A DNA stretch of 1,270 bases from Escherichia coli (GTDB taxonomy: Bacteria > Pseudomonadota > Gammaproteobacteria > Enterobacterales > Enterobacteriaceae): the NCBI RefSeq assembly GCF_003334335.1, contig NZ_QOWQ01000114.1. One strand, given 5' to 3'. A model generated the notes under the pieces. That model did no database searches. It saw nothing but the letters and a program-made list of their open reading frames with translations, and was not told the DNA's origin. Below are positions 101 to 855 of the stretch, in pieces (the stretch's first letter is position 1; each line of letters starts with the position of its first letter). A program made the position numbers and the translations under genes.

Positions 101-104
101 CCTC
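101..104 (-). promoter_or_regulatory. Shine-Dalgarno (GAGG) for the downstream partial CDS, overlapping the TGA stop of the 250-aa CDS
   Basis: Minus-strand sequence GTGTGAGGCCAATATG: the stop TGA (105..103) shares GA with GAGG (104..101); a 5-nt spacer leads to the ATG at 95..93. Confidence 0.45.
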
Positions 105-855
105 ACACTTCGAATGCCAGTTGAGGGGTAAAGACGTCCCGTTCAGCGTTGTAATTAAGTGAACTGGCACTGTTGAATGATTCAATGCGTTCCACAAGAA
201 CTTGCGTACGGGTTTCTTTACTTGCGGGAGCATATGGCGAACCTACCCAGGATTTGTCGATGCCTATATTTCTTGCGACGTTCGTGCTGTCTGCAGACGA
301 AAGCGGTACATGAGTAAAAATGTCTTTATTTAACATCCGTAACCCATGAATCTTGGTGATTGGGTAGCCGTACTGATCTACAACATGACGTATAAGATCG
401 CGTAGTTTAGCCCGACACGCTCTCGGTCGTTTTGCATCGTATTCCCCCATCGAGCCGATGCAGACGCGGGGAAACTCATGGCACAGACGAATAAATCGCT
501 CATCTGGTTCGTTCATGTGCCACACCGGAGCACCAATAAATTTACCGTGAGGCCATGCCGCAATCAGGGCGTCATTCTCTTCACTGGTTCCGCCGATAAC
601 ATCCGGGATAACCGCGAATGAGAAACGAGGGTGATTACCCCAGCGTTCAACAAATCTGTAATATTCATTCCAGTCTATGGCCTTGTTTTTTGTCCAGAAT
701 GTGAATGCACCATTATCAAGAGCAAATGATTGGGTGACTTCGGAAGCCAGATCAATCTGAGCTGGATTAGCAAAACTGATGAATGCGTGTCTGCCTTTCC
801 AGGCTTTCAACGCACAGGTATCGGGAGTTATTGGACCACCGTGAAAATGAATCAT
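103..855 (-). CDS. Putative TGT-superfamily transglycosylase, 250 aa: queuine/preQ0 tRNA-ribosyltransferase-like catalytic core without the zinc-binding subdomain; candidate DpdA-like 7-deazaguanine DNA transglycosylase.
   Basis: Complete 753-nt ORF, ATG 855..853 to TGA 105..103, with GGGAGAG at 865..859 upstream. By-eye collinear motif matches to E. coli Tgt as recalled from memory: FALDNGAF (D47) vs ILTDSGGFQ; FSFAVIPD (D85) vs IVMIFDEC; CIGSMGE (132-138) vs AVGGLAVGE; PITKIHGL vs PRYLMGVG; SSADSTNVARNIG (D189, ARNIG 194-198) vs MFDCVMPTRNARNG. No CxCxxC motif follows. Confidence 0.8.
   Translation of the reverse strand: MIHFHGGPITPDTCALKAWKGRHAFISFANPAQIDLASEVTQSFALDNGAFTFWTKNKAIDWNEYYRFVERWGNHPRFSFAVIPDVIGGTSEENDALIAAWPHGKFIGAPVWHMNEPDERFIRLCHEFPRVCIGSMGEYDAKRPRACRAKLRDLIRHVVDQYGYPITKIHGLRMLNKDIFTHVPLSSADSTNVARNIGIDKSWVGSPYAPASKETRTQVLVERIESFNSASSLNYNAERDVFTPQLAFEV

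Follow-up and report, generated by a model that had tools for sequence, protein, structure and literature searches.

Phage DpdA has been linked to 7-deazaguanine DNA modification in Escherichia phage CAjan, where deletion of dpdA abolishes dPreQ0 in the phage DNA, and in phage 9g, whose DpdA alone is able to put host preQ0 into plasmid DNA in E. coli (PMC6884629). The least understood part of this field is the group of "DpdA-only" phages, among which SfI (NC_027339) YP_009147480 and HK106 YP_007151699 have been catalogued (Hutinet et al. 2019, Nat Commun, Suppl. Data 1, PMC6884629). According to the same authors, singleton DpdAs of gamma-proteobacterial phages form a separate cluster whose function may have diverged (PMC6884629). 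LC-MS/MS has been applied to two members of this group that infect enterobacteria: the DNA of Salmonella phage 7-11 contains dADG at ~0.02% of G (PMC6884629), and that of Pantoea phage MED16 contains dADG at ~0.13% of G together with a trace of dPreQ0, and is not protected against the restriction enzymes that were tried (PMC8306585); for both phages the connection between dADG and DpdA is correlative only. With HHpred, the MED16 DpdA gives a 99.18% match to the TGT of T. maritima (PMC8306585). In the literature searched, we found no experimental work on HK106, SfI, or the DpdAs of temperate lambdoid or P22-like phages.

Here, we describe a dpdA-like ORF in a 1,270-nucleotide stretch of an Escherichia coli contig (NZ_QOWQ01000114.1), the whole of which is referred to below as the window. 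All four CDSs in the window lie on the minus strand and run, 5' to 3', from the 3' part of exo through orf60a and the 250-aa ORF to the start of an orf61-like gene (Table 1). A preliminary description of this DNA had located the ORF correctly without stating its strand, and had also recognized a phage or prophage accessory context; the DNA proves to belong to a lambdoid E. coli/Shigella prophage, within its early-left (pL) operon. The neighbors, on the other hand, were taken for small unknown genes and are instead recognizable lambda genes: the exo C-terminus, orf60a/DUF1317 and orf61. Because the dpdA-like ATG overlaps the orf60a stop codon (ATGA), the sequence suggests that the two genes are translationally coupled, and no promoter-like site was found in the window on the strand of the dpdA-like gene. 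Just upstream of this gene, within orf60a, there is a terminator-like hairpin (window 924-946, minus strand) with a 9-bp stem, 6 G-C pairs and a T-rich tail. The hairpin could attenuate transcription that has not been N-antiterminated, or may be fortuitous; 5 terminator-like sites were found, with 1.2 expected in shuffles.

Table 1. Coordinates of genes, signals and key codons in the window. Counts out of 71 refer to alignment A1, and residue pairings to the DpdA of phage CAjan.
Feature	Position	Strand	Basis and remarks
dpdA-like ORF, 250 aa	103..855	-	ATG 855-853, stop 105-103; minimal TGT-superfamily TIM barrel, "DpdA-only" phage family
Lambda-type exonuclease (exo), 3' part, leaves window	1007..1270	-	phrog_149 E=4e-21 and SfI/PhiR5_1 annotation
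orf60a / DUF1317 family, 54 aa, directly upstream of dpdA-like ORF	852..1016	-	phrog_1998 E=5.7e-33; SfI, PhiR5_1 annotation
orf61-like gene, 5' part, ATG 95-93, 7 nt past dpdA-like stop	1..95	-	PhiR5_1 CDS 4235-4450 corresponds to window ..95
Shine-Dalgarno-like GGGAGAG, 3 nt before dpdA-like ATG, within orf60a end	859..865	-	Sequence read directly
D47 codon GAT (LDNGAF)	715..717	-	71/71; pairs with D63; predicted general acid/base, base-binding Asp
D85 codon GAT (IPDVIG)	601..603	-	70/71; pairs with D105 (hhalign)
H113 codon (PVWH), barrel-strand end	517..519	-	70/71; pairs with H132; invariant in merged alignments A3, A4
H170 codon CAT (KIHGL), 19 residues ahead of predicted nucleophile	346..348	-	71/71; pairs with H187
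D189 codon GAC (SADS)	289..291	-	70/71; pairs with D206; predicted catalytic nucleophile

Two phages match the window closely, Escherichia phage PhiR5_1 at 100% identity and Shigella phage SfI at 98.9%. Both phages share the pL early-left gene order N ... gam-bet-exo-orf60a-[ORF]-orf61 ... xis-int. SfI YP_009147480 has 99.6% amino acid identity to the window protein, and bears the name "queuine tRNA-ribosyltransferase" in RefSeq and PHROGs. Since a near-identical protein had already been catalogued as DpdA and named, the family assignment is not new and the novelty claimed in the preliminary description does not hold; published in 2019 and present in RefSeq and PHROGs, the assignment adds little as a discovery. 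Two further features of these phage records deserve mention. The SfI RefSeq entry contains a 117-aa "hypothetical protein", gp33 (7880-8233), whose CDS has 131 nt in common with the end of the dpdA-like gene (8103-8855) on its 3' side, the alternative in PhiR5_1 being a 71-aa orf61 that starts 7 nt past the dpdA-like stop; the gp33 CDS has probably been called with an overlong N-terminus. In PhiR5_1, genes for a HipA-like kinase and "HipD" (7915-9488) separate kil from cI, at the position of lambda's rex/N. This is a toxin-antitoxin or defense moron, and is unrelated to the dpdA-like gene.

Searches of the standard domain collections gave no indication of the identity of the ORF. A match to the Pfam TGT profile (PF01702), which the preliminary description had proposed to look for, was obtained neither for the ORF nor for any of 71 near-full-length homologs (alignment A1, the source of all counts out of 71), and Pfam as a whole likewise yielded nothing for these proteins, even at E<=10 for the ORF. 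NCBIfam and PADLOC, including the PADLOC DpdA model, did not match the ORF. Against PDB sequences, phmmer with the ORF returned no significant match, and hmmsearch with the profiles of A1 and of the merged alignment A4 returned only GCN4 coiled-coil noise (E ~0.2). The only weak phmmer matches, to HipT/HipA_C (E 2.2), are ascribed to chance. When A1 was compared by hhalign with one E. coli Tgt sequence, the probability was 0.3%, a single-sequence template being too weak for the purpose.

Taken at face value, the blank results from Pfam, NCBIfam and HMMER against the PDB would favor a generic TIM-barrel enzyme that is unrelated to TGT and resembles it in its motifs by coincidence. The control speaks differently. 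CAjan-type DpdA1 members carry no precomputed Pfam domain and are missed by PF01702 just as the ORF is, and a DpdA1 profile matches no TGT or DpdA in the PDB with HMMER. Because the genetically validated CAjan DpdA1 is equally invisible, searches of Pfam and of PDB sequences cannot detect phage DpdAs, and their negative outcome does not refute DpdA identity.

Positive evidence of homology came from other comparisons. PHROGs places the ORF in phrog_887, "queuine tRNA-ribosyltransferase" (E=2e-99), a family that also takes the DpdAs of CAjan (8e-96), 7-11 (7e-74) and Rinkes (7e-37) as well as a Caulobacter phage homolog. Pairwise BLASTP, for which the figures are single-comparison E-values, linked the ORF to MED16 gp38 (2e-47, 39% identity), Salmonella phage 7-11 DpdA (1e-36, 35% identity), Rinkes DpdA (2e-11) and CAjan DpdA (1e-4); the match to HK106 YP_007151699 stands at 2e-27. 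A scan of 1.84 billion cluster representatives revealed 906 related clusters at E<=1e-3. At the profile level, hhalign of A1 against a 15-sequence alignment of CAjan-type DpdA1 gave 98.7% (E=2.3e-16) over 172 columns, ending at ORF residue 199, so that a validated phage DpdA is indeed matched. In this register the five residues of Table 1 pair as listed there and G134 pairs with G153, and all of these positions are invariant in DpdA1. With an E-value of this order and the motifs in register, the sequence comparison indicates that the resemblance to TGT motifs is more than chance.

A structural model was created using AlphaFold2 with A1 (mean pLDDT 94.1, pTM 0.90) and consists of eight alternating strand/helix units. 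The TGT-like TIM barrel envisaged in the preliminary description is thus what the prediction gives: a (beta/alpha)8 barrel, nearest in structure to TGT-family proteins. Foldseek against the PDB places generic TIM barrels first (TrpA, dehydroquinase and PdxJ; E ~5e-3) and TGTs at ranks 31-44, which could again be read in favor of a generic barrel; given this ranking, the search confirms the barrel and not the family. Of the models in a viral structure library, 31 reach E<=1e-3; many of them are annotated as queuine tRNA-ribosyltransferase, in Arthrobacter, Mycobacterium, Microbacterium and Dinoroseobacter phages, and a protein of Vibrio phage nt-1 is also among the 31. Past these 31 matches the scores drop by more than one order of magnitude, to generic barrels. 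Together with the likeness in fold to Cap10 and the hhalign match to DpdA1, the viral library effectively refutes an unrelated TIM barrel, which we regard as extremely improbable. The combined evidence supports the ORF as a highly diverged TGT relative, a DpdA-family homolog in a prophage accessory slot.

The preliminary description had based its assignment on five motifs that were compared by eye with E. coli Tgt. These are L46-D47-N48-G49-A50-F51, A81-V-I-P-D85, S135-M-G-E138, I169-H170-G-L172 and A188-D189-S-T-N-V-A-R-N-I-G198, and their positions were all exact when recounted on the translation; the codons for D47, D85, H113, H170 and D189 were also checked on the DNA. The corresponding Tgt motifs (TDSGGF, IFDEC, GLAVGE, YLMGVG and DMFDCVMPTRNARNG) are all present in the E. 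coli Tgt sequence, and at 250 aa the ORF is, as estimated, ~125 residues shorter than the 375 aa of E. coli Tgt. The equivalences themselves survive in part. The D47, D85 and IHGL motifs belong to the conserved core, and the conservation of D47, D85 and D189 across homologs that the assignment called for is evident from A1 (Table 1). SMGE and ARNxG, however, are weak and clade-specific at best: E138 occurs in 26 of the 71 homologs and the A, R and N of "ARN" in 38, 44 and 55 respectively, and ARN is missing from the DpdAs of 7-11, CAjan and Rinkes. Two strongly conserved residues, H170 and H113, had been overlooked (Table 1), and S190 is kept in 70/71. The CxCxxC zinc motif is absent from all 71 proteins of A1, which also do not conserve the four Cys of the ORF, and the ORF product ends ~60 residues beyond the predicted nucleophile.

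Possible roles for the conserved residues can be proposed from characterized relatives. Judging from motif order, D47 would be equivalent to D95 of S. Montevideo DpdA and D73 of Cap10. D189 is the predicted nucleophile, a role carried over from DpdA D256 and from TGT. H170 is probably its hydrogen-bond partner, by analogy with H226 and D248, the catalytic pair of Cap10 (10.1101/2025.04.06.647259). A conserved histidine in 9g DpdA has been reported as His196, and is missing from DpdA2 (PMC6884629); H170 and H113 are candidates for its counterpart in the ORF. Compared with its Klebsiella ortholog, the dpdA-like gene is under purifying selection, since synonymous sites are saturated (pS 0.82) while pN is 0.11.

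One region of the protein departs from the family. Helix 141-158 (window 388-432 corresponds to residues 142-156) is without the conserved "WWxRM" and has C147 where 62 of 71 homologs and CAjan DpdA have Trp. C147 was rejected as a sign of frameshift or decay, as orthologs from E. coli, Klebsiella and Salmonella all have the variant helix, a part of the structure that is predicted with confidence. The variant helix is a lineage feature of the temperate phages of these three genera rather than a lesion, and could represent a surface or partner-binding change.

At an identity of at least 99%, the dpdA-like gene is present in 100 of 5,426 complete E. coli genomes (~2%), where it is always chromosomal. 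The PGAP label is "hypothetical protein" in 15 of 15 among the dpdA-like records listed. Because no NCBIfam or Pfam model sees it, a candidate DNA-modification gene is being systematically missed in E. coli prophage annotation. One public record, OR850331.1, "Staphylococcus phage SA 1298 Kay" (1719 bp), encodes a protein 68% identical to the ORF, the same as in the Salmonella P22-like phages BTP1 and SPN3UB; mislabelling or contamination is the likely reason.

Lambdoid and Stx phages that are otherwise 97-98% identical differ in what lies in the slot between orf60a and orf61. PhiR5_1 and SfI have the dpdA-like gene there, and the insert in VT2-Sakai/933W-type phages is much shorter, with only the window flanks matching (39% coverage). 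In PhiR30_1 (2338-2895), the same slot is occupied by a DNA N6-adenine methyltransferase instead. The slot looks like a site for exchangeable DNA-modification cassettes. No preQ0/G+ genes (folE, queD, queE, queC) were found around the dpdA-like gene in SfI or PhiR5_1.

Related genes occupy comparable surroundings in other phages. The ortholog in Salmonella phage BTP1 (68% identity) lies in the pL operon, past erf/abc1/abc2 and amid ea genes (no expression data for it were found in PMC7067206), and that of Klebsiella phage RothD (86% identity) lies past the replication genes O and P. A Dam-methyltransferase::DpdA-like fusion (P0109, 5001-6266) is part of an early operon in a P2/186-like prophage, with gpA just downstream, its Dam part being truncated to ~201 of 267 profile positions, and a QueD::DpdA-like fusion (P0124, 2840-3847) is found on a 24-kb phage-like metagenomic contig; each fusion is known from one contig, and a frameshift or assembly artefact is possible for both. 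The homolog in Caulobacter phage DMCA lies directly 3' of a gene annotated as 6-carboxytetrahydropterin synthase, an annotation that a profile search did not confirm. Taken together, the contexts in BTP1, RothD, PhiR30_1, P0109, P0124 and DMCA link the clade to 7-deazaguanine supply and DNA modification during phage DNA replication. P0146 begins with a DpdA-like N-terminus and continues as a tail protein; as it is probably a chimera of assembly or gene calling, it was left aside. In Mycobacterium phage Rinkes, dpdA is part of a folE-dpdA-queC-queD-queE operon. The gene directly upstream of that operon (Rinkes 1-1302) encodes a "ParB-like nuclease domain protein", which recalls DpdB, the ParB-fold ATPase required by bacterial DpdA. 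No ParB-like gene is found near the dpdA-like ORF.

Considered as a whole, the best explanation of these data, and one that we think reasonably probable, is that the ORF product is a minimal TGT of the DpdA branch, without zinc and of the singleton type that both virulent and temperate Enterobacterales phages encode, which would place a host 7-deazaguanine at a few sites in phage DNA. The mechanism proposed here is modelled on TGT and S. Montevideo DpdA (PMC10164549), from which we infer every step for the ORF product. The gene would be transcribed with exo/bet/gam from pL in lytic growth, while the phage DNA replicates. [quoted passage not shown] A 7-deazaguanine from the host queuosine pathway would then resolve the intermediate, so that a few specific sites would carry dPreQ0 or dADG. 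As the phage is without preQ0 genes, the deazaguanine would have to come from the E. coli queuosine pathway, in which FolE-QueD-QueE-QueC supplies preQ0 and ADG is the preQ0 precursor. The protein lacks the zinc/Ins8 module, which speaks against a tRNA substrate and would leave only the barrel face for DNA binding, as in DpdA1. The modification would probably benefit the phage by shielding its DNA from some host nucleases, as is also suggested for the DNA adenine methyltransferase that occupies the slot in sister phages.

The small extent of modification in DpdA-only phages raises the question of whether a true DpdA/TGT homolog might have changed its function and no longer modify the DNA of its own phage. 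Such a protein might act as a hydrolytic glycosylase on the DNA of competing phages or of the host, from which it would strip guanine or 7-deazaguanine, or might exchange bases in a host RNA such as tRNA and so alter lytic translation. Only 0.02-0.13% of G is modified and there is no measurable protection from restriction in MED16, which would fit this reading, as would the separate gamma-proteobacterial singleton cluster and possible divergence noted by Hutinet et al. (PMC6884629) and the existence of defensive glycosylases that target 7-deazaguanine DNA (10.1101/2025.10.29.685425). The C-terminal 50 residues of the ORF and helix 141-158 are also unlike DpdA1; the complete transglycosylase catalytic set, however, is kept under purifying selection. 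A role in RNA is countered by the missing tRNA-binding zinc/Ins8 elements, and the gene belongs to a lytic early operon, without a promoter-like site of its own, instead of occupying the position of a lysogeny-expressed moron. As the QueD and DNA methyltransferase fusions also point to deazaguanine supply and DNA modification, we consider a change of function rather unlikely.

7-Amido-7-deazaguanine is the only base above trace in both DpdA-only phages assayed. It is conceivable, if doubtful, that the singleton clade is not a weak version of DpdA1 but a distinct enzyme that inserts a host queuosine-pathway intermediate different from preQ0, with this base as the candidate, directly, without a DpdC-like amidase and at few specific sites, as a mark that does not serve bulk restriction evasion. 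If this were true, modified sites would be expected in temperate-phage, and possibly host, DNA during induction, and the mark might, for example, evade one particular defense or label the phage's own DNA for replication, recombination or packaging beside the Red genes. A lambdoid E. coli phage, with standard genetics and host que mutants, would offer the easiest system in which to determine the activity, base, sites and benefit of a DpdA-only protein, and in this respect the present locus gives a useful starting point.

Comparison with known systems places the ORF at the small end of the TGT superfamily. Tgt (E. coli b0406; Z. mobilis) has, within its 375 aa, a zinc subdomain and tRNA-binding insertions, neither of which is present in the ORF, and E235 of its preQ1-selecting GLAVGE motif is not conserved in the ORF family, where E138 is its counterpart in the SMGE motif. 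The DpdA of the S. Montevideo Dpd restriction-modification island (PDB 7UI4) has 413 aa against the 250 aa of the ORF; bacterial DpdA contains Ins8 and a CXCX2CX22H zinc site, both absent from the ORF, and neither a DpdB ATPase nor a DpdC partner was found near the ORF, whose neighbors are lambda exo, orf60a, orf61 and ea22. Cap10 of type IV CBASS (PDB 9NTN) is alike only in fold, at 9% identity. The ORF could also be pictured as a Cap10-like protein that binds or transfers protein-conjugated 7-deazaguanine, or as a decoy against deazaguanylation-based defenses (type IV CBASS, QatABCD). Cap10, however, binds a protein-linked deazaguanine and belongs to a defense operon, whereas the ORF lies in a phage early operon, and no QueC-like Cap9, no CD-NTase with an N-terminal GG-rich tail and no Cap11 were found as neighbors in six dpdA-like contexts; we hold this reading to be very unlikely.

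A DpdA-branch enzyme acting on phage DNA, the reading that we prefer, has its closest counterparts among the phage proteins. DpdA1 of the Queuovirinae (Enterobacteria phage 9g, Escherichia phage CAjan) is like the ORF in belonging to the same PHROG and in having no zinc motif and no Pfam match, but differs in its ~20% identity to the ORF, its length of 306 aa and its C-terminal region. DpdA1 is also encoded with folE/queC/queD/queE and replaces 25-32% of G, compared with 0.02-0.13% for its singleton relatives. The ORF is a member of the DpdA-only cluster (SfI, HK106, 7-11 and MED16 gp38; the "DpdA/TGT_1" of the MED16 paper) and nothing sets it apart from this group, with which it shares a length of ~235-260 aa, the absence of phage preQ0 genes and a host with a full queuosine pathway. 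Within the cluster, 7-11 and MED16 are virulent phages, whereas the phage of the copy described here is temperate and lambdoid, with the gene in its pL operon.
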